DNA of 64,000 nt from Coleofasciculus chthonoplastes F2-STO-03 (GCA_040222015.1 JAVJWO010000040.1:71964-135963), one strand, 5' to 3'. Shown: positions 8,321-53,836, numbered from the stretch's first letter. Numbers and translations: made by a program. The notes: a model not told the origin generated them from the letters alone.

Positions 8321-9477
8321 AGTTATACAAAGAAAAGCGACGGATTAATATTCATAATTTTCGCGATCGCAAAAAAGGGAGAGCGACAGATAATCAAGGT
8401 GAACTCTTCCGCTACGAGGCTTTAGATGCAGGACAAACCTTTCAATCTATCATCCTTTGTGAAGATGACGATGTAGAAACCATTCAGAATTTATTAGCCG
8501 AACCAAATATCTGGTTAGGAGGTTCTCAAAGTGCGGGATACGGACATACTAAAATTATTGAAACCCAACCATCTAGCACGAATTGGAGTGAAATAGGAAT
8601 TTCAGCAGAAGACCGAGAAAATGATGACGTTTTGAGTATCACCCTTCTCAGTGACACGCTGTTAAGAAACGATCAGGGTCAACCTGTAGCTGATCCAAGT
8701 TTAATTAAACAAGCGATCGAGGATGTTTTAAATATAACCTTGCCTCAACCTAAACCAGGAGGTATTTTCACTAGCAGTACGTTAATCGGTGGCTTTAACC
8801 GGAAATGGGGATTGCCTTTACCTCAAGTTCCAGCCTTAACAGCAGGGAGTGTGATTGTTTTTGAAAGTGAAGATATTGCAATTACTACAGAACAAATTAA
8901 GCTACTTGAAGTTTGCGGAATTGGAGAGATAAGAGAAGACGGTTTTGGGAGGATTGCTGTAAATTGGCTAAACGATGAATATATTCAAGTAAAATTAGCC
9001 AAGTTATCTAGTACCTCCAGCTTACCGCCGTTAAGAAGCGAAGACTCGCGGCTTTTGGCTGAACAAATGGCACAAAGACTGTTGGAACAAAAGCTAGAAC
9101 AATATCTTCAAAAACAGCTTGGATATTTAAGTTTGGATGAGGGCATGAGTAACAGCCAATTATCACGACTGCAATCTGTTGCCCGACAAGCACTTCCCAA
9201 CGGAGATTGTAATTTAGTTATCTCGCTGCTAAATAACTTACCCTCTAATGCTAAGAATCAGTTTGAGCGCATAAAATTAGGAAACAAATCGTTCAGAAAA
9301 CAGCTAGACGAGTGGCTAGAAAATCCGACAAATTGGATTAATGGTATAGAATTAAAAATTGCTGATGTAGAGCGCAAATTTGATGACGATCGCGCTCGAC
9401 AAGATAAGCTAGCTGAAAAGTACACGCTACGCCTAATTATGGCAGTAGCCAAGAAGGCAACTAAGGAGAAAAACTAA
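8281..9477 (+). pseudogene. csx10: Csx10/Cas5-type RAMP with Cas11-like helical tail (Cas7-Cas5-Cas11 fusion remnant), 5' end deleted
   Basis: Frame open from 8281 (TGA at 8275-8277, no plausible start): RDRKKGRA..GELFRYEAL, LGGSQSAGYG, FNRKWGLP, GIGEIREDGFG. Confidence 0.8.
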
Positions 9478-10253
9478 TGATTCTTGAACGCCTGAACCGC
9501 CACCAACGCCCTATTGCTAAACGCATCATTGTACGAGGCAGATTAATTTTAGATACTCCGACTTGTCTAGGAAGTGGTGATGCAGATAGTCCAACTGATT
9601 TAGCATTACTCAGAGATAGTATTAGTGACCATGCTATTTTAACAGGTTCATCTATTGCAGGTGCTTTGAGAAATTACTTACGTGAGTATGAGCATGGGTA
9701 TGTGACAGGTGAACAAGAGTGCGATCGCGCTACTTCCCTATTTGGTGGAACCCGTCGTGATGATGATGGTGAACAAAGTCCATTAATTGTGAATGATGCC
9801 ATCAGTAGCAAGATACCGACTGTGGAATTGAGAGATGGAGTAGAAATTGAAGGAAAAACTGGTACAGCCAAAAAAGGTCAGAAATACGACTTAGAGCTAT
9901 TAGCCGCCGGAACTGAATTTTCTCTATGTTTTGAATTACTGATAGAGCAGAAACAAGACCCCAGAGAACAGCAAAATTATGAAGATAGGCTAGTAAAATC
10001 ACTAGCATTAGCTTTACGAGGCTTAGAGCTTGGTGAAATTAGCATTGGCATGAAAAAGCGACGGGGCTTTGGTCGCTGTAAAGTGAAAACGTGGCAAGTT
10101 TGGCAATTTGACCTCACTCAAGATGATAAAAGATTAGAATGGCTACTATTTGAGCATTGGTGTACAGAATTATTACCAGAACACGAAACGTATTCGTCAA
10201 TTGCTACTGCTCTTGGGCTGTCTTTGGATGAAGAGGAAGACAAACGCGAATGA
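9477..10253 (+). pseudogene. Csm3/Cas7-group RAMP, probably the first half of a Cas7-Cas7 protein
   Basis: TPTCLGSG, GSSIAGALR, SPLIVND and MKKRRGFG glycine loop; ends abruptly at EDKRE*. Confidence 0.75.
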
Positions 10254-10782
10254 AACGCTTAGAACTTGGTTAGAGGAACAAGCGAGAACCTGTAACCTAA
10301 ATTATCTGCTAGCTCATGCTGAAGACGGTGTAATTTGGGGTCGCTTTGATTCAGGCAAATTAACCACAGCGGAACAGATATTTCACCAGCCTGAGTTTAA
10401 CGTAGATTTTCCATCCCTACGAGTCTTCACCCTTCAACAATGCCGTATCTTTGGCAAAAATACTGAAGTGATGCTCTGGAAAGTGGGTCAAGACGACTGG
10501 AAAGCACGTTCCATTGAGGATAAATATCTGTCAGAAGAGGACTATATTTCCGAAAATCAAATCCTTTGGGGAACTAAAGCCGAGAAGGAATCCAATGGAT
10601 TTACTTTAGTGTCAGATGGCTCTCAAGGTTTAAAACACGCTGTACCTTTAAGTGGGAGTTTTAAAGGTAAAGATTCTCGATTCTTACGTTTAAAAGTACA
10701 TCATTATATTCATTATGATGATGGAGTAGCTCGTATCTATTTGAGTCGTCTGGTTAATTTATATTTTGATAGCAATACTTAG
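10249..10782 (+). pseudogene. csx19: Csx19 (type III-D), start missing
   Basis: YLLAHAEDGVIWGRF, TLQQCRIFG, ILWGT, QGLKHAVP and ARIYLSRLV; no in-frame start after the cas7 stop. Confidence 0.8.
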
Positions 10783-10853
10783 ATTTTAATTATTTGTCTC
10801 AATAGCATCGAACTCACATTAAAATAAGAATAGATTGCATTAAGGAGCAAATT

Positions 10854-11441
10854 ATGATTACCACTCGCGAACACTATCAAAAAATGACGGCTGAAGAATA
10901 CTTAGAATGGGAAGCCAAGCAAGAATTTCGCCATGAATATATTGACGGCGAAATTCTTGCTATGACAGGAGGAACTCTTCCTCATAATGACATTGCCCTT
11001 AACTTGTACAGGACTTTATATCCTCATATACGTCAGAGGGGCTGTCGAGTTAATGTGTCAGATGCGAAAGTTCAGGCTCGTAAAAATAGTCGCTATTTCT
11101 ATCCCGATTTAGTTATCAGTTGCGATCCTGATGATTTGAAAGCTCGCGATTTTATTCAAAATCCGAAAGTTATTGTTGAGGTTCTTTCTCCAGGTACAGC
11201 CAATTACGATCGCACGAAAAAACTCAAGTATTATCGCCAGATTCCGAGTTTGCAAGAATACGTCTTAGTGGATTCAGAAGAAATAGTAGTTGAGGTTTAT
11301 CGTAGAGGAGAAGGTAAGATGTGGCTTTATTATGAGTATGAAGCTGGGGAAGCGATCGCTTTAGAAAGTATTGAGTTTGAGTGTGCGATCGACCTGCTGT
11401 ATGAAGGTGTTAGTTTTGAACAAGAGTTAGAGGATAAATAG
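10854..11441 (+). CDS. Uma2 family (DUF820) endonuclease-like protein
   Basis: RHEYIDGEILAMTGGT, YFYPDLVISC, VEVLSPGT and YRQIPSLQEYVLVD. Confidence 0.93.
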   Translation: MITTREHYQKMTAEEYLEWEAKQEFRHEYIDGEILAMTGGTLPHNDIALNLYRTLYPHIRQRGCRVNVSDAKVQARKNSRYFYPDLVISCDPDDLKARDFIQNPKVIVEVLSPGTANYDRTKKLKYYRQIPSLQEYVLVDSEEIVVEVYRRGEGKMWLYYEYEAGEAIALESIEFECAIDLLYEGVSFEQELEDK

Positions 11442-11480
11442 AGATTAAGTTAATTCACTGAATCATAAGGAAACTGAACT

Positions 11481-13415
<1,935 letters not shown>

Positions 13416-13593
13416 AGGTAGCACCAGATCCGGTGAAAAGTAAGAGCAACATGGGGGTAGTTAACCCGGATTTAGTCTGAGCCATAGGCAGGGGAATTTT
13501 TTATTTGGCACAGATTGCCGTTTTTTCCAAATCAACGTTATAATCTGATTTGTGTAAGTATGTTTCCTTGGAAACGCCGCTACACACAAGGAA

Positions 13594-13666
13594 GGGCGCG
13601 TAGCTCAGTGGATAGAGCACCAGATTCCGGTTCTGGGTGTCGGGGGTTCAAATCCCTCCGTGCTCG
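13594..13666 (+). tRNA. tRNA-Arg(CCG)
   Basis: GGGCGCG/CGTGCTC acceptor stem, CCAGA-TTCCGGT-TCTGG anticodon arm, GGTTCAAATCC T-loop. Confidence 0.97.
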
Positions 13667-14114
13667 TTAAACTGTCGATTGACACATTATTTGTCATCGT
13701 TGTCAGATTAGTGTCATCGGCTCTCCAGTAGGACGAGGGTAGGGGTTATTGATACGGTCGAGGGTAGTATTTTTCCGTTTGATGAAGGCTTGTTGTTGGT
13801 TATTGAGGTCGCCTTTTTCGTTCATCTTAGTTAAAGTTTTGGCGATGTCTGCTGCTTTTTCGGCACGAACTTCCTCATGCTGCGATATTATGCAGTTTCC
13901 TTGATCCCGAATAAGTCATGTCACAATCCTGGTGCTGACTTTTGGCATCCCATCCGATAATAAGGCGATGTTGAGTTTCGTGTAGGTACAGCCCGCCGTA
14001 GGCATCGCGTCTCTCGATTCAGGTCAATTTGGTAATCTTCTATAATGTATAGTTTCGGAGGCAGATTGTAATAACTCTTGCCTTAGAATCCAATAGATTT
14101 TGCTCAGGTTATCG

Positions 14115-16844
14115 ATGAAACTAACGCTTTCTCGCTTGTACAATCTGTTGCTTACTGCTTGCGACGATCTGCGCGGTAGTATGGATGCTAGTGAGTACAA
14201 AGAGTATGTCTTTGGCATGTTGTTCTTGAAGCGGGCAAGCGATCTCTTTGACCAACGCCGTGCTGAGTTACAAGCAGAGTTAGCAGCTAGAGGCATGGCT
14301 GAAGAAGACATCGAGGTAGAGTTAGAAGACCCCGATAATTACTCTAGCAAATACTTCTATGTGCCACCTCGCGCCCGCTGGAATGAGGGCTGGCAAGAAG
14401 AAGTGATTGATGATAATGGTCAGCGTCAAATCGTCAAGCATCCGGCTCTCAAGCATGTTAAAAATAATGTCGGTACGACTCTCAATAAAGCTCTAGAGGC
14501 AATTGAAGATGCTAACCCGGATGTACTAGAAGATGTACTCAAGGGCATTAACTTTAACCGCAAAATCGGGCAGCGAACGCTGGACGACGATACATTGTCT
14601 GATTTTTTGCAGAACTTCGAGAAGATTCCTTTAAAAGACAGCGATTTTGAGTTTCCCGATCTGTTGGGGGCAGCTTACGAGTGGCTAATCAAATACTTTG
14701 CTGACTCGGCGGGCAAAAAAGCGGGAGAATTTTATACCCCAGCGGAGGTGGTGCGGGTTTGCGTCGAAATTTGTGACCCAGAGGAGGGGATGCGGGTATA
14801 TGACCCTACTGTCGGCTCAGGTGGGATGCTGATTCAAATGCGGGACTATCTGCGGGAAAAGGGGAGAAATGCAGAGGAACTGGCTCTGTTTGGACAGGAG
14901 AAAATGGGGACAACCTGGTCTATCTGCAAGATGAATATGCTGCTGCATGGCATCTCCCATGCGGATATTCGTCAAGCGGATACCATCCGCGAACCCCAGC
15001 ACTTAGACGAAAATAACGAACTCAAACGCTTCGATCGCGTCTTAGCCAATCCCCCCTTTAGCCAGAACTATATTAAAAAAGATCTGGTATTCACCGGACG
15101 GTTTCCGGTGATGATGCCGGAAAAGGGTAAGAAGGCTGACCTGATGTTTGTGCAGCACATGCTGGCGGTGTTGAAGCACGATGGTCGCTCGGCAACAGTA
15201 ATGCCCCACGGTGTGCTATTTCGAGGGGGAGAGGAGCATGAAGCCCGCAAATACTTTATCAATCACGGTTATCTAGAAGCGATTATTGGTCTGCCTAGTA
15301 ACCTGTTTTATGGCACTGGGATTCCGGCGTGCATTCTCGTGCTGAATAAGATGGGGGCGACGACTCGCGATCGCGTGCTGTTTATCAATGCCGATCGCGA
15401 ATACCGTGAGGGCAAAGCGCAGAACTTCCTGCGCCCCGAAGATGTTGATAAAATTGTCTATGCCTATCGCACCAAGGAAAACATTCCCGCCTATGCGCGG
15501 TTAGTGCCCAGGGCGGAGATTGCTGAGGAGGACTACAACTGCAATATCCGGCGTTATGTGGACAATGCCCCACCGCCCGAACCCCATGATGTGCGTGCCC
15601 ATCTGCATGGGGGTGTGCCCAAGGTGGAAGTCGATAGCCTCGAACACTTTTGGCAGAACTATGGGCAGTTGCGAGAGGATGCCTTTGTGCCCCGTGATCA
15701 GACTTATCTTGACTTTGCCCCAGTGCTGACGAGTAAGCGCGACATTGCCGACTTTGTGGCGACTCACCAAAGTGCGATCGCTCGTCACCAGCAGTTTATG
15801 GGAACGCTAGAGGAGTGGTGGCAGGAAAATCTACCCATTGTGGAGGCTCTAGCCCCCGATGCAGCGAATCAGGAAGCTCGCCCCCGGAATGTCTATATTA
15901 TGCGGAGTCGTTTGCTCAGGAGCATTGAAGAGAAATTAGCCAACCAGCAGTTACTTACCTCCTTTCAGGTGCGGGGGGCATTTGCTAACTATGTGGACAC
16001 ATTGAAGGCAGATTTTAAGTCCATTGCAGCCAGTGGTTGGGGGGCAGAACTGATTCCCGATGAGGATATTTTGCAGAGCCAGTTCCCGGAAGTTTTGGAG
16101 GAATTGGAGCAAGCGCAGACTCGTCTGGCGGAGTTACAGGCACTATTTGCTGCTGCTGATGCGGAAGATTTTGAGGATACCGACGACACGGGGGTATTGC
16201 CTAGTGAGGAGGTGAAAAGTCAAAAAGAGGAGTTGAAGACTTGGACGACGGAGTGGAAGGCGCAGATCAAACAGGTTAAAGCTTTGGCTGGCAATATCTT
16301 CACTGAAATTAAGGCAGCGAATTTGTTACCCCCAGGTGCTAAGAAAGGCTTTTATTGCACTGAAGGATTTACCCAAAAAGAGGTGCTGTTTACTAACGGT
16401 AATCGTATTCTGGAGCTTGCTGCTGATGTGGGTCATATCAGTGAGTATGCTATTCCTTTGAAAGAGGCAATGGAACGGGGACAACACGCCTATAATCAGG
16501 CAGCAAGGATTACCGCCAGCTTGGAGCGTCACAAGGCTTTAGAAGATGAAGTGAGAACGCTCCGGGCTAATATTAGGAGTATTGAGCATAATCGCGATGA
16601 ACTGGTGCAAAGTGCCCGTGAAAAGATTTCTACGGATGAAGCTCGCACGGTGATTATTGAGCGTCTGCGGAAGACGCTGATGGAGATTTATGAAACTTAT
16701 TTACGGGCGGATCAGCGGGCTTGTGTGCGGGCGGTTGAGAATTTGTGGGAGAAGTATGCGGTGACAGCGAAGGAGATTGAAGCAGCAAGGGATGCAGCAG
16801 CGCAGGAGTTACAGGCGTTTTTGGTGGAGTTGGGATATGAGTGA
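14115..16844 (+). CDS. hsdM: Type I R-M methyltransferase subunit with long C-terminal extension
   Basis: [16 protein letters not shown] (motif I) and NPPF (motif IV); ATG at 14115. Confidence 0.95.
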
Positions 16845-18126
16845 GGATATATACATTTCCCTTGGTGATGTAGCTCATATCATTGACCCTCATCCAAGTC
16901 ATCGAGCACCTGAGGAAGTTAAGGAAGGAATACCGTTTGCGGGAATAGGAGATATTAGTGAGACAGGTAATCTTATTCATGGAAGAGGAAGGACTGTACC
17001 AAAAAGAATACTGTCTGAACACTCACTTAGATATCAGCTTTCGGGAAACACTATCGGTTTTGGACGAGTCGCAACCATTGGAAAGGTCATCGACTTTCAG
17101 GAAGGAATCAGAGATTTAGTTCTGTCTCCTACTATGGCTGTAATCGAACCTCACACAATTGATCGTGATTATCTGTTAGCAGTTCTTGGGAGTCAAAAAG
17201 TAAAGAAGACTATAGATAAATGGCTTACAGGCTCTACTCGGTCATCCTTAGGTATAGAGTTGCTTCGTGATATCCCAGTACCAGATCTTCCCAGGAGAAA
17301 GCAGGAAAAGATCGGGAGAGTGTATAGAACCTTAAGTAACGCGATCGCACATACAGAAGCCCTGATCGAGAAATACCAGCAGATTAAGGCAGGGCTGATG
17401 CACGACTTGTTTACCCGTGGCATTGGTGCGGATGGCAAGCTGCGCCCTCCCCGTGACGAAGCGCCGGAGTTGTATCAGGAGAGTGCGATCGGTTGGATTC
17501 CTAAGGATTGGAATTGGGAAATCGTTGCTGATTTATGTTCCCAAGTAGTTGACTGTCCTCACTCAACACCTATATATCGTGACTCAGGGATTCCATGCAT
17601 TAGAACTGCTGACATGGAACCGGGAGAATTGATTCTAGAGCAAGCATATTGCGTGGATGAAAAGGACTATAAGATCCGAACTCAAAGGCTAGTTCCAAAA
17701 GAAGGAGATATTATATACTCCCGAGAAGGTGAACGACTTGGCATTGCATCACCTGTAGGCATTAAAAAGGTCTGCCTTGGACAAAGGGTTATGTTATTAC
17801 GCCCAGATTCAAATACAGATCCAAGCTTTTTACTTTGGAGTATGAATCATATTGATTTTTACAGAAGAGTCGTTAGAGGTTTAGGTGCAACGACTTCACC
17901 TCATGTGAATGTTGGAGACATTAAAGCAATACCAATATCAGTGCCAACATATAGAGAGCAGGTTCTCATTGGAGAGAAAATAAACGCAGTTCAAGGTGTT
18001 TTAAACCGAGAAAAAAAATTCAGAGCGAAGCTACAGCAGAAGAAAAACGGTCTGATGCATGATCTCCTCACTGGCAAAGTTCCCGTCAAAGTCCATTCTG
18101 ATGAAGTGGATCATATCTCAAACTAG
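16837..18126 (+). CDS. hsdS: Type I R-M specificity subunit
   Basis: Two TRDs with conserved coiled spacers ([19 protein letters not shown]; [14 protein letters not shown]); overlaps the hsdM stop. Confidence 0.93.
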
Positions 18127-18192
18127 CCCCATCGCCTGTCCTGATAGCAATGCTATCATCAGCATAAGTAATTCCTTCAAAACCCCATCGCT

Positions 18193-18453
18193 ATGGCTAA
18201 TCTAATTGTTCGTAACATCGACGATGCCATTGTCAAAGCACTGAAACAACGGGCTAGTCGCCACGGCATTAGTACCGAAGCCGAACATCGCAAAATCCTA
18301 GAGCAAGTCCTATTGCATCCGCCCCAAAAATCCTTTGCTGAAGTGCTTCGCCTCATTCCCAATGTTGGCAAAGATACCGACTTTGAACGATCTTTGACAG
18401 TCTCATACCCCCCAAATCCCCCAAATCCCCCAAATCATGAAAACCAATATTGA
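18193..18453 (+). CDS. FitA/Arc-like ribbon-helix-helix antitoxin with altered C-terminus
   Basis: MANLIVRNIDDAIVKALKQRA..HG.S.EAEHR.IL; tail after DFER is repeat-derived (CCCCCAAAT x3). Confidence 0.75.
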   Translation: MANLIVRNIDDAIVKALKQRASRHGISTEAEHRKILEQVLLHPPQKSFAEVLRLIPNVGKDTDFERSLTVSYPPNPPNPPNHENQY

Positions 18454-18631
18454 AATAGACGAAGCCTTAATTGCCGATGCCCTGCAAACCACTGGGCTAA
18501 CCACCACCGATCAAGTAATCGAGTTGGCTCTAAAAACGCTATTACAGCTCAAGCACCAAGAAAAAATCAAAGCTTTTCGAGGCAAGTTGTCCTGGGAGGG
18601 CGACCTCGACCTGATGAGGACAGATACATGA
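18437..18631 (+). CDS. vapB: VapB-family antitoxin
   Basis: MKTNIEIDEALI..A...TGL...ELALK..L.....KAFRGKL.WEGDL..MR pattern. Confidence 0.8.
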   Translation: MKTNIEIDEALIADALQTTGLTTTDQVIELALKTLLQLKHQEKIKAFRGKLSWEGDLDLMRTDT

Positions 18632-18660
18632 TTTTAGTCGATTCCAGCCTTATCAGGTAG
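18628..18660 (+). pseudogene. vapC: Stump of a VapC PIN toxin (MILVDSSLIR*)
   Basis: ATG overlaps the vapB stop (ATGA); MILVDSS is the usual VapC start; stop after 10 codons. Confidence 0.6.
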
Positions 18661-18663
18661 CTT

Positions 18664-21600
18664 ATGTCTGAATATACCGAAGTCGAACAGCCATTTCTAC
18701 AGCAGTTACAAACCCTCGGTTGGCAAATTATCGACCAGGGCGCACAAATCCCCAGTGACCCCACCAAAAGCCTACGGGCTAACTTTCGGCAGTGGCTGCT
18801 TCCCCAGGTCTTTAACCAAGCCGTCGCAGCCCTCAACACTAACGCCGACGGCACTTCCTGGCTCACCCCCAAACAACTCCAAGACCTGCAAGACCAAATC
18901 CTGCGCCAGCCCAACCGCACCCTCCTCGAAGCCAACGAAGCCATTCAAAAACTGCTGTTCAAGTCCCAAGTCGATGTCAACGAACAAACCGGGGAAGAAG
19001 ACCCTGTAGTAAAACTGATCGACTTTGCAAATCCCAAGAACAACCAGTTTCACGCCATCAACCAGTTCCGCATCGATACACCGGGCTGCGTGAAGCAATA
19101 CATCATTCCCGACATTGTGCTATTCGTGAACGGCATCCCCTTGGTGGTGGTCGAGTGCAAAAAAGGTAGTGCCACCTGCGCCAACCCCATGTCCGCAGCC
19201 TTTGAGCAGCTCCAGCGTTACATGAACCAGCGAGAGGAGACCACCCGGCATGGTTTACGGGAAGGAGAACCGCGCCTGTTTCATCCCAATCTGTTCGTAG
19301 TTCGCAGCACAGGCGTTGAGGCTGACTATGGTACGATCACCTCCGAAGCAGAGCATTTCTATCCCTGGAAAACCCAGTATCCTCAACCAGAGAGTACCGC
19401 CGAAGGGCTGAACCAACAACAGCAACTCATCAACGGTATGCTCAATAAAACCAACCTACTGAGCATCTTGCGGACTTCTAGCGTCTTTATGGACAGCGAT
19501 AGCGGTCCCCGCATTAAAGTGGTGTGCCGTTACCAACAGTTTCGAGCAGCCAACAAAATTATCGAACGTCTACGCCAAGGTCAAACCGCAGCCGAAAAAA
19601 GTGGTGTTGTTTGGCATACCCAAGGATCGGGCAAAAGCCTGACAATGGTATTTATGGCGCGGATGCTGCGGGCATCGTCAGACCTGAGCGACTACAAAAT
19701 CGTGCTGATTAACGATCGCGTCGATCTCGAAAAGCAGTTGTCTAAAACCGCCACCCTGATTGGCGGGCGGGTTTATCCTATCGAAAGCACCCAAGCCCTC
19801 CGAGACCACCTATCAACAGATGCCTCCGATATCAATATGGTGATGGTGCATAAGTTTCAGCAGCGCGATCGGGTCATGCCCCTGAAAGTTGCCGAAGCCC
19901 TGGGGACTTATCGCCCTATTCCTAGCAACCAGACCTTTGGCGTAGTCAATCACTCCTCCCGCATCGTGCTGATGATTGACGAGGCTCACCGCACCCAAAG
20001 CTCCGACCTGGGCGATAACGTCTTTGAAGCCTTTCCCAACGCTGCCCGTCTTGCCTTCACTGGCACCCCACTGATTACAGAGCGACACGGTGAAAAGAAA
20101 ACCCATAAACGCTTTGGCAGCTACATCGACACCTATCGGCTCATGGATGCCGTACCCGACGGCACTACGCTACAAATTTTGTACGAAGGTCGTACCTCCG
20201 ACGATGCCCTCAACGATAAACACGGCTTTGAAACCCGCTTTGAAAATCTCTTTCGCGATCGCAGTGACGAAGAGTTACTAGCAATCAAGAAAAAATACGG
20301 AGCGACAGGCGACTTGTTAGAAGCCGAGCAACGGATTGGCGCGATCGCCCAAGACCTAGTGAAACACTACCTAGAAAATATTTTCCCTAACGGCTTTAAA
20401 GCCCAAGTCGTGTGCCATTCTAAACTCGCTGCTGTGCGTTATCAAAAAGCAATCCATCAAGCCTTAGCCGACACCGTAGCCCGCTTAAAGGCGCAACCTA
20501 ACCCCGACCTCGAACTGATCCGCAAAGTACGCTTCCTCAAGGCAGCAGTGGTAATCTCCGGCAGTGGCACTAATGAGCCTACCTACGTCACCGAAGCCCG
20601 CCAGCAAGTCCGAGCTTGGAATGCCGTCGATAACTTTTGCCGTCCCTTCGACTTTGACGATCCCGATAAGCCTCATACTGGCATTGCCTTTTTGGTTGTG
20701 TGTGACATGCTACTCACGGGCTTTGATGCCCCCATTGAGCAGGTGATGTATCTCGACAAAAAAATGAAAGAGCATACATTGCTACAAGCGATCGCCCGCA
20801 CCAACCGAGTCAAGAAAGGCAAACAGCGGGGCTACATCGTCGATTACATCGGTCTCACCGAAAATCTGACGGAGGCTCTGACTCTGTATGCAGCCACTAA
20901 TGAACAACAGGAATTGGCTCAGGGCTTAAAAAGCATTGCCTCTGAGATGCCCGTGTTAGAGGAGCGATATCAACGCCTGCTACAGCTATTTGCAGAGCAT
21001 AAGGTCGCCAAAGTACGGGAATATGCCGAAGGGAACCTAGAGACCATCCAAGCAGATGCTGCTGTGGTTCATGAGGCGGTTAAGCTACTCAAAAACGAGA
21101 AAATCCGGGCTGACTTTGAGGTCTATCTAAAAAAATTCCTGGCGAGTCTGGATATTATCCTGCCCAACTCCATTGCTCAAAAATACCGAGTGCCTGCCAA
21201 ACGGTTGGGCTATATCCTCCAAGTCACCAAAGAGCGTTACAAAGACACTAGCCTCAACCTGGGCGATGCTGGCAAAAAAGTCCGGGATCTAATCAACGAG
21301 CATTTGATTAGTCTGGGCATCAACCCCAAAGTGCCTCCCGTAGAGCTGCTATCGCCAGACTTTATGGCGCAACTTAACCAGCACGCGGGTAACAACGACG
21401 AAGCCAAGGCTAGTGAAATGGAGCATGCCATCCGCAAGCACTGCACTGTCCACCACGATGAAGACCCAGCCTTTTATCAAAGCCTATCGGAGAAAGTCGA
21501 GTACCTAATCGAAGAATATCACGACCGCTGGGACAAGCTCGCCAAAGAGTTAGAGAAAATCCGCGAAGAGGCGATCGCGGGTCGTCAGCAGGGTGAAGAG

Positions 21601-21924
21601 GGCATGAGCAAAGAAGCAACAACCTTCTACGAACACATCGCCAACCAGGTCTTTGAAAATGGAGAGATACCCCCAGATGCCAAACCCAAGATCAAGGTGC
21701 TGATGGAAGCAGTTGTCGAAACCTTACAAGATAGTATTGGCAGCATCGATTTCTGGAATAATAGCGATAAGCAAAAGCGAACCCGCAGTGAAATCAAGAC
21801 TGCACTTACCCTTACTGGCATTGTCGAGTTGAAAGTAAATCGTGAACGGATCGCCGTTGAAATTATGAAACTCGCCAAAAACCGCCACAACGAACTATTG
21901 AAAGGTACGACTGACAACCCATGA
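18664..21924 (+). CDS. hsdR: Type I restriction endonuclease/translocase subunit
   Basis: PDIVLFVNGIPLVVVECK nuclease motif, HTQGSGKS Walker A, IDEAHR, MLLTGFDAP, LLQAIARTNR. Confidence 0.96.
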   Translation: MSEYTEVEQPFLQQLQTLGWQIIDQGAQIPSDPTKSLRANFRQWLLPQVFNQAVAALNTNADGTSWLTPKQLQDLQDQILRQPNRTLLEANEAIQKLLFKSQVDVNEQTGEEDPVVKLIDFANPKNNQFHAINQFRIDTPGCVKQYIIPDIVLFVNGIPLVVVECKKGSATCANPMSAAFEQLQRYMNQREETTRHGLREGEPRLFHPNLFVVRSTGVEADYGTITSEAEHFYPWKTQYPQPESTAEGLNQQQQLINGMLNKTNLLSILRTSSVFMDSDSGPRIKVVCRYQQFRAANKIIERLRQGQTAAEKSGVVWHTQGSGKSLTMVFMARMLRASSDLSDYKIVLINDRVDLEKQLSKTATLIGGRVYPIESTQALRDHLSTDASDINMVMVHKFQQRDRVMPLKVAEALGTYRPIPSNQTFGVVNHSSRIVLMIDEAHRTQSSDLGDNVFEAFPNAARLAFTGTPLITERHGEKKTHKRFGSYIDTYRLMDAVPDGTTLQILYEGRTSDDALNDKHGFETRFENLFRDRSDEELLAIKKKYGATGDLLEAEQRIGAIAQDLVKHYLENIFPNGFKAQVVCHSKLAAVRYQKAIHQALADTVARLKAQPNPDLELIRKVRFLKAAVVISGSGTNEPTYVTEARQQVRAWNAVDNFCRPFDFDDPDKPHTGIAFLVVCDMLLTGFDAPIEQVMYLDKKMKEHTLLQAIARTNRVKKGKQRGYIVDYIGLTENLTEALTLYAATNEQQELAQGLKSIASEMPVLEERYQRLLQLFAEHKVAKVREYAEGNLETIQADAAVVHEAVKLLKNEKIRADFEVYLKKFLASLDIILPNSIAQKYRVPAKRLGYILQVTKERYKDTSLNLGDAGKKVRDLINEHLISLGINPKVPPVELLSPDFMAQLNQHAGNNDEAKASEMEHAIRKHCTVHHDEDPAFYQSLSEKVEYLIEEYHDRWDKLAKELEKIREEAIAGRQQGEEGMSKEATTFYEHIANQVFENGEIPPDAKPKIKVLMEAVVETLQDSIGSIDFWNNSDKQKRTRSEIKTALTLTGIVELKVNRERIAVEIMKLAKNRHNELLKGTTDNP

Positions 21925-22628
21925 ATATCCGCTGTGTCAGAGATATAGAATACCAGTTACTACCTGGTAGCCCGCGTAAAACCACCGATATTGTGATTGA
22001 GCGTGATGGCAGAGTAACTTTGCGCCCACCGATTGATTACACCCCCGAACAAGCCGATGCAGTAGTAGAAAGCAAGCGTCTATGGATCTACCGCAACTTG
22101 GCTGAATGGAAAGACCTCAATGCCAGTGCTGTAGTGCGCGAGTGGGTCAACGGTGAAACCTTTCTGTACCTGGGTCGTACCTATCGTTTGGCACTCGTAT
22201 CAAATCAAGACCGTGCCCTCAAGCTCAAAGAAGGCTACTTTTGCTTAGATCGTAGAATTGTTGAGCAAGGCGGTAATGCAGCAGCAAAACAAGCATTTAT
22301 ATCGTATTTCATCGAGAAGGGTCAGCAACGTTTTCGCGATCGGGTTAAATATTTTGCTCCTAAAGTCGGCGTTCAGCCTGTGGGAGTCAAAGTCAAAGAC
22401 ATGGGCTACCGCTGGGCTAGTTGTGGCACAAGTGGCTGGCTTAATTTTCATTGGAAAGGCATGATGGCATCACCCAGAATTATTGATTACATTGTGGTTC
22501 ATGAGCTATGCCATTTCCACCACCGTAATCATAGCGATCTCTTCTGGAACGAAGTAGATAAGGTGATGCCCGACTACCGGGAGAGAAAAGAGTGGCTTAG
22601 AAAAAATGGTGCCAGTTTGACCGTATAG
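21921..22628 (+). CDS. YgjP/DUF45 (M48-like) protein
   Basis: RWASC and IDYIVVHELCH HExxH motif; coupled to hsdR by an ATGA overlap. Confidence 0.9.
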   Translation: MNIRCVRDIEYQLLPGSPRKTTDIVIERDGRVTLRPPIDYTPEQADAVVESKRLWIYRNLAEWKDLNASAVVREWVNGETFLYLGRTYRLALVSNQDRALKLKEGYFCLDRRIVEQGGNAAAKQAFISYFIEKGQQRFRDRVKYFAPKVGVQPVGVKVKDMGYRWASCGTSGWLNFHWKGMMASPRIIDYIVVHELCHFHHRNHSDLFWNEVDKVMPDYRERKEWLRKNGASLTV

Positions 22629-22674: not shown

Positions 22675-23274
22675 TCAAAAACCTAGAAATTCATCGATGA
22701 GATTGTTTCGCTCATCTTCAGATAACTGATAGAATACCTTTTTAGCCAGCTCTGGAGAGGCATTTTTGGAAAACCAGTCACTATTAGGGTTATCTTGTAT
22801 TACCAAAAAATATTGTAATCGTTTCTCTATCGCCTCTTTGTCTGATTTGTCTAACTGTCCTATGCGCTTCAACCAATGATGGTTAGAATCTTTAAAACAG
22901 TTACCATCAACAGTGTATATTTGATGTATTAAAGCATAATATTCAGTATCAAGCTCATTCCTTTGAGTTGGATTAATCGGGTAAACCGTTGGTAAACCCT
23001 TGTATATCTCTCGTGAACTCAATGGGATAATTGCAAATGTCTGCATGTCATCCGAGTTATTTCTAAATTGCTCACTTGTCCAAACAAGGTGAGGATGACT
23101 GCCTCTCAAAACTCGACTAGCATTAAGCTTTTCTGTACAATCTTTATGATTACACTCGATCTGACTGGGTTCTTGTAAATCATAAATATGAACATGACCC
23201 TGCTTACAGCGCAAAGAAACACGATCAGGATTAATCAAGTAGATCCATCCTTGCCGAGGTTTTTGTCCAGCCAT
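22675..23274 (-). CDS. PemK/MazF-like toxin with Cys/His insert
   Basis: PRQGWIYLIN, RG.HP.LV, IIPLSS, ALIHQIYTVD and RIGQL follow the PemK/MazF pattern. Confidence 0.7.
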   Translation of the reverse strand: MAGQKPRQGWIYLINPDRVSLRCKQGHVHIYDLQEPSQIECNHKDCTEKLNASRVLRGSHPHLVWTSEQFRNNSDDMQTFAIIPLSSREIYKGLPTVYPINPTQRNELDTEYYALIHQIYTVDGNCFKDSNHHWLKRIGQLDKSDKEAIEKRLQYFLVIQDNPNSDWFSKNASPELAKKVFYQLSEDERNNLIDEFLGF

Positions 23275-23275
23275 T

Positions 23276-23758
23276 TTACAAACCTAACTCACTCACCAAT
23301 TTTTCTCGTTCGGCGTTTAAATTGAGCTTAACTGTTTCTTCAGCTTGATGAATTTGCCTCATTTCCAGCATTGGAGCCGTATTCTGTACATAATCTAATA
23401 ACTGTTCAAATTTTGCGGCACTAGCCCACTCTCTTCTAATGTTATCAAGCATTAGTTTTAGACCCAAAGGTAAATTTATATCAGTTGTGATATCTGCTTC
23501 TATGCCTAGTCTAATAAAGGTAATCCTGCCTTCAGCTTCCTGGGCAATCTCTTTCCCGTCCATTTGACTGAGAGCGGCGTCTATATCTTCATTCCAGGGA
23601 CTACGATGGTAGTAACACCAGTTTAATTCAGTAAGCTGCTTTCCTGTCCATTTAACCGTATAAAGATCAGCCAAATATAAAAAATTAATTAGCTGTGTTT
23701 TCGTGATATGCCCTTTTGTCTTATAGACAAAATATTTGATGAGTTGCTCCAACATCAT
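23276..23758 (-). CDS. Panacea (DUF4065/SocA/GepA-like) antitoxin
   Basis: ITKTQL..FLYLAD...W.G..LT...W.YYH..PW; lies 1 nt upstream of the toxin gene. Confidence 0.78.
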   Translation of the reverse strand: MMLEQLIKYFVYKTKGHITKTQLINFLYLADLYTVKWTGKQLTELNWCYYHRSPWNEDIDAALSQMDGKEIAQEAEGRITFIRLGIEADITTDINLPLGLKLMLDNIRREWASAAKFEQLLDYVQNTAPMLEMRQIHQAEETVKLNLNAEREKLVSELGL

Positions 23759-23828
23759 TACTTTTAATGCTGATACCTAGATCGTCGAGTATTATGAGAA
23801 ACCGGGTTTCTCGCGAAGATGACAGAAA

Positions 23829-23956
23829 TAAGCTGTTCGGCATTTAAACCTTAATGTCAATAATGGCAAAATCCTTGTAGTGCGTTAAGCGAAGCCATGC
23901 CGCAGGCTTTGCATCTTGCTCGCTACCTATTCCCAATTTAAATGCATGACAGCTTA
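23829..23956. mobile_element. MITE family A copy (128 bp TA-to-TA)
   Basis: TAAGCTGTTCGGCATTTAAA...TTTAAATGCATGACAGCTTA; near-identical reverse copy at 53430-53557; lies between two AGAAACC(G/C)GGTTTCT palindromes. Confidence 0.85.
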
Positions 23957-24002
23957 TCAAGCTTTCACCCAAAGAAACCCGGTTTCTTGACCGAGGCATC
24001 CA

Positions 24003-53373: not shown

Positions 53374-53836
53374 ACCAGAAGCATCACCCATCATTTTCGA
53401 TAACACCGTCTTGAGTAATTTTGCTCTGGTAAGCTGTCACACATTTAAATTGGGAATGGGTAGCGAGCAAGATGCAAAGCCTGCGGCATGGCTTCGCTTA
53501 ACGCATTACAAGGGTTTTGCCGTTTTTGACATTAAGGTTTAAATGCCGAACAGCTTACAGGCTTTTGATATCTTACGACAGCTTTATGAAAGTAGAGCCT
53601 TTATTTGTCGAGCGGTTCTACAGGAGATTCAGGCAGGAATTGATAGCGGTTGGAAATATCCTTGGTTACGAGGTAGAACTGGATTACAGGTCATTAATCA
53701 GGCATTGGACGAGGGTTGGCTGCAAATCCCCAGAAGTGAGGTCAATCCAGGCGACGATATTGTGGAGCTTCAACTTGCCCTAGAGTATGGTCAACGTTTT
53801 GGTGCAGGAGAGGCAGAAGCAATGGCGATCGCTTGA
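53366..53836 (+). pseudogene. PIN-domain (DUF3368-like) toxin interrupted by a MITE and 3'-truncated
   Basis: IIFDNTVLSNFALV / QAFDILRQLY...VLQEI...GAGEAEAMAIA*. Confidence 0.7.
53430..53557. mobile_element. MITE family A copy with TA duplication
   Basis: G-TA-[AGCTGT...ACAGCT]-TA-CAG; removing 126 nt restores GTA CAG (V-Q) in the PIN gene. Confidence 0.88.

Follow-up and report, generated by a model that had tools for sequence, protein, structure and literature searches.

Introduction

Few bacterial RNases have been studied as thoroughly as the MazF toxins, which also serve as tools. In the solved MazF structures, the loop connecting strands beta1 and beta2 bears the catalytic Arg (that of the 'R-P' motif, R25 in B. 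subtilis MazF and R29 in E. coli MazF). It is this very loop that folds shut over the RNA and that the acidic C-terminus of the antitoxin displaces, as seen for MazEF and EndoA-EndoAI. Toxins of this fold are also encoded next to antitoxins of the Panacea type: the catalogue of PanA:PanT pairs, which spans dozens of toxin types, includes both PemK and HHpred-detected EndoA/PemK/MazF-like toxins (clusters pT5, pT6 and pT9), and for two PanA:MazF-fold pairs, those with the PanT of Pseudomonas moraviensis and of Bifidobacterium ruminantium, both toxicity and its neutralisation were demonstrated (Kurata et al. 2022, PMC8832971); the PemK rows among those listed from its Dataset S1 belong to Firmicutes and Fusobacteria. 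The Panacea domain has a compact alpha1-alpha7 plus beta1-beta2 architecture (PMC10440598), a stand-alone Panacea can neutralise directly (Ernits et al. 2023), and, according to a published hypothesis, the sensor is the Panacea domain itself. Zinc is not brought up in connection with MazF in the main texts of either Kurata et al. 2022 (PMC8832971), where the word is absent altogether, or Ernits et al. 2023. A zinc finger and an RNase are, on the other hand, combined in RAZR (ring-activated zinc-finger RNase), an immune protein that senses phage proteins (PMC13017515).

The gene pair described here was found within a 64,000-nt stretch of the Coleofasciculus chthonoplastes F2-STO-03 genome (GCA_040222015.1, JAVJWO010000040.1:71964-135963; this whole stretch is "the window" hereafter) and follows the plan of the PanA:PanT pairs (PMC8832971) in having a Panacea-type antitoxin directly upstream of a MazF-fold toxin, as well as in being bicistronic, mobile and patchily distributed. 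The catalogued PanT toxins, however, are ordinary-sized, and there is no mention there of a zinc-ribbon insert, of His where the catalytic Arg would be or of an acidic tail (PMC8832971), whereas the window toxin has the latter two and a putative zinc ribbon. The first-pass annotation, made from the DNA alone, had presented the pair as an uncharacterised PanA-MazF variant, and this appears to hold for the architecture of the toxin but not for the class of the pair, which is catalogued, with two members validated (PMC8832971); homologues of this very pair are annotated in RefSeq as a SocA antitoxin plus a PemK/MazF toxin. A zinc-ribbon MazF with His for Arg and an acidic tail is apparently an undescribed toxin architecture, as no paper describing a zinc-ribbon MazF was found in full-text literature searches.

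Organization of the gene pair

The features of the locus are as follows (window coordinates):

23276..23758 (-): antitoxin gene, 160 aa; putative divergent stand-alone Panacea/SocA-like protein
22675..23274 (-): toxin gene; 199-aa protein of predicted MazF/PemK fold
23110..23223 (-): residues 18-55 of the toxin; Cys/His insert of the MazF beta1-beta2 loop, putative CHCC zinc ribbon
22807..23109 (-): MazF core of the toxin, residues 56-156; includes R57, H60 and S86
22678..22806 (-): C-terminal extension of the toxin, residues 157-199; acidic, three short helices predicted, without a Pfam match
23759..23827 (-): short leader/promoter region between the MITE and the antitoxin start; holds the palindrome AGAAACCGGGTTTCT (23797-23811)

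Both ORFs lie on the minus strand, the antitoxin ORF upstream and the toxin ORF downstream, with a single nucleotide between the antitoxin stop codon and the toxin ATG; the two-gene arrangement initially proposed is there, down to the last coordinate. The true start of the antitoxin is probably the second ATG (at 23755), because the window ORF opens with 'MM', while nearly all of its relatives open with 'ML'. A consensus scan of the leader (23759..23827) found no promoter on the minus strand, and the pair has no match in either NCBIfam or PADLOC.

Between fabI and the antitoxin gene, there is a MITE-like repeat of ~130 nt (window 23828-23957) with 21-nt terminal inverted repeats that are 86% complementary; it is present in at least 40 copies (89-97% identity) in the genome of the strain, another one being located at ~53427-53557 of the window. 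On either side of the repeat lies one copy of a perfect palindrome of 15 nt, AGAAACCSGGTTTCT (23797-23811 and 23973-23987; chance expectation of 0.09 per window), of which the former is ~40 nt upstream of the antitoxin start and the latter forms a terminator-like hairpin after fabI, the convergent neighbour. The palindrome was considered as a possible operator; it is not conserved upstream of the relatives, and its second copy sits in the terminator-like hairpin of fabI.

The toxin and its fold

The toxin exceeds the threshold of the Pfam PemK_toxin model (PF02452; 36.8 bits against 23.1, E 5e-9), its residues 56-156 being matched to profile positions 18-108 of 109. As the match begins at profile position 18, the first 17 positions should correspond to toxin residues ~1-17, which leaves an insert of ~38 aa (residues 18-55); the N-terminal 'RQGWIYLINPD' does align with the beta1 strand of ordinary MazFs. 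An AlphaFold2 (AF2) model built on an alignment of 30 relatives (mean pLDDT of 80) has the SH3-like beta-barrel of the MazF/CcdB fold, and with it as the query, Foldseek gave 54 PDB matches at E<=1e-3, of which the 50 listed are all MazF/EndoA/MoxT/PemK-type interferases (target TM-scores of 0.6-0.74), including 4MDX and 4ME7 (B. subtilis MazF). Sequence searches of the toxin and the antitoxin against the PDB gave nothing significant, and the family profile of the toxin gave only marginal MazF matches there (E about 0.3). The MazF/PemK fold, already named in the first-pass annotation, is thus what both the profile match and the model point to.

Compared with canonical MazEF/EndoA-EndoAI, the window toxin is of the same fold (target TM-score about 0.7 at a Foldseek E of about 1e-4 to 1e-5), keeps Thr/Ser at the catalytic position and begins beta1 with 'G-x-I-Y', yet differs in having a 38-aa Cys/His insert, a His in place of the 'RP' Arg and a 43-aa acidic C-terminal extension; the partner differs as well, the canonical antitoxin being MazE/AbrB-like and that of the window Panacea-like. 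The toxin gene is under purifying selection (dN/dS of 0.26-0.39 against three relatives, at dS of 0.15-0.40), and its product is near neutral rather than basic (pI 6.2).

The insert had been noticed from the outset as a Cys/His-containing stretch of ~35 aa, an estimate not far from the ~38 aa delimited here, and its motif (CKQGH...CNHKDC) reads C23-x3-H27-x13-C41-x4-C46. All four of these residues are invariant in the alignment of 30 relatives, where the mean column identity is 65%, and the four-ligand pattern is retained by 85 of the 86 full-length members of the toxin family, the N-terminus of the single exception being aberrant; 69 members have C-x4-C as the second knuckle, and 16 have C-x2-C. 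In the model, the insert folds into four short strands (18-22, 28-32, 37-40 and 49-52; pLDDT of 81-90), with C23 and H27 between the first two and C41 and C46 between the last two. Such a placement of the Cys/His pairs, in the turns of two beta-hairpins, would be that of a zinc ribbon, and the insert, being conserved and ribbon-like, would be expected to bind zinc. It is positioned in the beta1-beta2 loop, where it separates beta1 from the loop segment in which the catalytic Arg is normally found, and is lacking in the ordinary MazFs that appear in the match list of the family profile. Its net charge of +1 is not notably basic, which speaks against a simple RNA-binding role for the ribbon.

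The residue aligned to the canonical catalytic Arg is His60 (followed by Pro61), a replacement that the first-pass annotation overlooked. It is by no means a peculiarity of the window sequence: about 90% of the family have His in place of the 'RP' Arg ('R..HP' in 73 of the 81 members scored), because of which the RNase chemistry of the toxin is not assured. Arg57, three residues before His60, does not vary among the 30 aligned sequences and could take over from the canonical Arg. Ser86, a position at which the family has Thr, falls on the catalytic T48 of B. subtilis MazF in the profile alignment, and the equivalent position is occupied by Thr or Ser in 80 of 84 family members (T in 74, S in 6). 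Beyond the end of the PemK profile, the toxin continues for 43 aa (residues 157-199), in good agreement with the extension of ~40 aa originally suggested; this extension has a pI of 4.3, is predicted to form three short helices and contains the invariant W167 and N171.

The antitoxin and its motif

The antitoxin scores 25.2 bits against the Pfam SocA_Panacea model (PF13274, DUF4065), just 0.5 bit short of the threshold of 25.7, and only its N-terminal half aligns (residues 26-79 to profile positions 4-57 of 113). Of 23 aligned relatives, 22 match SocA_Panacea at E<=0.01 (the best at 1.1e-9), and most of the more than 300 relatives have a precomputed PF13274 match, many of them being named 'SocA domain-containing' antitoxins. 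When compared using hhalign, the antitoxin family matches a strong Panacea protein, the partner of a short ribbon-containing MazF (P0262, see below), at 95% probability over the N-terminal 65 aa; with a canonical Panacea protein encoded in the same genome, the alignment is weak (probability of 11%), yet S53-P54 falls on the G-P of 'YGPV'. The C-terminal half is acidic (pI 4.7) and family-specific, and it ends in an invariant helix, 'LNL..E..L' (residues 145-160). The AF2 model (pLDDT of 75.6) comprises 7-8 helices and two beta-hairpins, one at 48-55 with the motif on it and an additional one at 69-84; Foldseek found nothing significant for it in the PDB, and in the viral library, the third match was a SocA-like Panacea protein (E 0.029, TM-score of 0.56, not significant). 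We call the antitoxin a divergent Panacea-type protein on these grounds, and, with the toxin passing the PemK threshold, the pairing of a Panacea antitoxin with a MazF-like toxin, as first put forward, stands.

At the place where the Panacea GP motif is to be expected, residues 49-55 read YYHRSPW, as had been pointed out earlier, and so the aromatic-Gly-Pro motif ('YGPV/W') is not present as such. The family consensus at this site is YYxFGPW, the window protein and its close relatives have HRSPW or RHSPW, and other members of the family have GL, RL, GS or GV. The change from Gly to Ser had been left open as either a variant or decay. Three relatives retain the Ser variant across dS of up to 0.40, and the dN/dS of the antitoxin against these three is 0.20-0.29 (dS of 0.15-0.40), which makes Ser for Gly a lineage variant under purifying selection; decay is ruled out by the intact ORFs, the dN/dS values and the Ser being common to the three relatives.

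Distribution and mobility

A search of 5.8 billion proteins gave 95 clusters of ~200-aa relatives of the toxin. The family is small, for an exhaustive HMMER scan with its profile, which covered 1.84 billion cluster representatives, gave only 82 proteins at E<=1e-3 (27 at E<=1e-30). Among 301 cyanobacterial genomes, the toxin is present in 13 (about 4%), which represent 11 of 134 genera, and the genome of the window has one copy. In Sphaerospermopsis, Desertifilum and metagenomic contigs, the two genes remain together at a spacing of 1-3 nt although the neighbourhoods are unrelated, the pair is also kept in the divergent long forms described below, and at least eight unrelated contexts retain it altogether, which is the linkage of a type II module. 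Four cyanobacterial plasmids carry the pair; on the one plasmid examined, an IS630 transposase gene adjoins, and the PGAP names of the pair are 'SocA domain-containing antitoxin' and 'PemK/MazF family toxin'. None was found in the phage genome collection. Conserved linkage, patchy spread and presence on plasmids are what characterises mobile modules of addiction or defence. The module also decays in some lineages: a 110-aa protein of Anabaenopsis elenkinii (P0094) is a toxin remnant in which residues ~1-38 are fused to ~131-200, the deletion having removed all of the MazF core together with the greater part of the ribbon.

The pair borders on a defence-island-like stretch (window 9477-22628), both in the window genome and in a relative of 93% identity; the stretch consists of the following:

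9477-10253: RAMP-superfamily (CRISPR) protein
10854-11441: Uma2 nuclease
14100-16844: hsdM of a type I R-M system (ORF of 914 aa, methylase domains ending at residue ~489)
16777-18126: hsdS of the type I R-M system
18664-21924: hsdR of the type I R-M system
21921-22628: YgjP-like metallopeptidase, beside the type I R-M system

In other genomes, the neighbours are mostly housekeeping genes. The pair may, quite reasonably, have a defence role in this particular lineage.

Ribbon-containing MazFs beyond the cyanobacterial family

The same insert and tail recur in divergent forms of ~195-215 aa (P0232, P0235, P0239, P0242 and P0243), of which P0239 keeps Arg-Pro and has CxxC as the first knuckle. 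All four long-form distant relatives examined have a Panacea-like partner, including one form whose partner, while having no Pfam record, matches the antitoxin family at 99.2% in hhalign. There are also short forms of ~150 aa (P0256, P0262, P0265, P0269, P0271 and P0276), found in Cytophagia and KSB1 MAGs and in metagenomes, which have a putative zinc ribbon inserted at the same site of the beta1-beta2 loop as the window toxin but differ from it in the ligands (canonical CxxC...CxxC), in having retained Arg-Pro and in lacking the C-terminal extension; P0265 yields weak matches to some twenty Pfam zinc-ribbon models. The presence of the ribbon at the same site in both the short and the long forms makes it an old feature of a MazF subclade; the insert thus predates the cyanobacterial family and extends beyond it, something that had been overlooked at first. 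Judging by these alignments, the cyanobacterial family is the derived one, having exchanged both a ligand Cys and the catalytic Arg for His and gained an acidic tail.

What these toxins are paired with is not constant. P0262, similarly to the window toxin, follows a Panacea protein (of 184-211 aa), which indicates that a toxin can pair with Panacea even if it lacks the C-terminal extension; the idea of the extension as a Panacea docking site was dropped for this reason. The P0265 group, unlike the Panacea-paired window toxin, is accompanied by an unrelated 87-aa protein. The ORF of this protein, which precedes P0265-type MazFs in Cytophagia, KSB1 and unclassified MAGs, is conserved and matches nothing in Pfam; its C-terminal tail is acidic and contains Trp (type 'EWDDFTLAEEWL'), making it a candidate new antitoxin family; upstream of short C4 MazFs, it was located as follows:

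L024, 2723-2986: 87-aa ORF
L025, 2725-2988: 87-aa ORF
L027, 2715-2978: 87-aa ORF

With P0265 next to the 87-aa ORF and P0262 next to Panacea, the ribbon-MazF clade thus appears coupled to at least two unrelated antitoxins.

Discussion

Taken together, the pair is quite probably a mobile type II toxin-antitoxin module made up of a Panacea-type antitoxin and a MazF/PemK-fold endoribonuclease with a structural zinc ribbon. The upstream Panacea antitoxin would most likely bind the downstream toxin directly and keep it inactive. The toxin would act as an endoribonuclease, the beta1-beta2 loop of which holds a small structural zinc ribbon (Cys23, His27, Cys41 and Cys46) that may stiffen and enlarge the RNA-/antitoxin-binding surface and, in so doing, alter substrate choice and partner specificity; we infer such a reshaping because the MazF loop closes over RNA and is displaced by the antitoxin. 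Catalysis could be carried out by Ser/Thr86 together with His60 (for the usual Arg) and/or the invariant Arg57, and the acidic C-terminal tail might serve as an extra regulatory or docking element.

The insert had at first been imagined as a trigger sensor. On such a reading, a phage protein bound by it, or zinc or redox state acting through its thiols, would release or activate the toxin, and the pair would be a switch for abortive infection or stress. Sites rich in Cys can respond to redox state, the pair does abut a defence island in its own genome and in the close relative, and zinc-finger RNases that sense phage proteins do exist in the form of RAZR (PMC13017515), which resembles the window toxin in joining a zinc-ribbon module to a toxic RNase in a defence context and might therefore serve as an analogy for a sensing zinc finger. 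RAZR, however, has a HEPN RNase and an N-terminal zinc finger rather than a loop insert, it has no antitoxin, and there is no homology between the two. The insert, moreover, lies in the loop that binds the substrate and the antitoxin, the published hypothesis puts sensing in the Panacea domain, and the ribbon also occurs with the 87-aa putative antitoxin, i.e., it is not tied to Panacea-type regulation. The housekeeping neighbours in other genomes and the lack of both PADLOC matches and copies in phage genomes speak against a sensor as well. Phage-sensor surfaces are usually fast-evolving, whereas the ligands and the residues next to them are highly conserved here. The sensor reading has, for all these reasons, found no support and seems unlikely to us; the ribbon most plausibly has a structural or specificity role.

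The missing 'RP' Arg raises the question of whether the toxin is an RNase at all, for CcdB, a gyrase poison, is of MazF-like fold, and the toxin could similarly be a target binder or else an inactive, domesticated protein. His60 in about 90% of the family, the near-neutral pI (6.2) and the divergent P0235 and P0243, which also lack Arg at the position equivalent to R57, would all fit such a scenario. The Pfam match, however, is to PemK_toxin and not to CcdB, the structural matches listed are all MazF RNases, the Thr/Ser position and the invariant Arg57 are kept, and the long-form relative P0239 still has Arg-Pro; His is, furthermore, a competent general acid/base in many RNases, and purifying selection along with the tight linkage to the antitoxin argue for toxicity. 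A toxin that is not an endoribonuclease is hence improbable in our estimation. Still a little harder to credit is that the Cys/His residues do not bind metal and merely form disulfides or help to pack the insert, the "ribbon" being a beta-hairpin decoration, even though one of the ligands is His and the C-x3-H spacing is unusual: variation is seen around the four positions but not at them, either C-x2-C or C-x4-C can make up the second knuckle, distant relatives have the textbook CxxC...CxxC at the aligned positions, and a cytoplasmic location disfavours disulfides.

The structural zinc ribbon that we favour has implications for a fold as well explored as that of MazF, as a natural clade that combines a ribbon in the gating loop with His instead of the catalytic Arg would illustrate how both specificity and control can be re-engineered on it. 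The apparent swapping of antitoxins within the ribbon-MazF clade would offer a clean case of the phenomenon and bears on how the "hyperpromiscuous" Panacea domain acquires its partners. Since pairs of this type are already catalogued, the gain is incremental unless the insert turns out to be regulatory. On that side, it can be speculated, at long odds, that the ribbon makes either the activity of the toxin or the grip of the antitoxin dependent on zinc or thiol oxidation, with the acidic tail acting as an in-cis inhibitor of the RNA groove, in which case cyanobacteria would possess a metal- or redox-switched RNase toxin.

Apart from the pair in question, the genome of the strain contains, on other contigs, two more strong Panacea genes (88.6 bits for L009 1420-2294 and 85.3 bits for L010 1375-2389), each overlapping a downstream ORF (of 146 aa and 133 aa, respectively) that has no Pfam match, and these two are candidate PanA pairs with toxins that Pfam has yet to catalogue.
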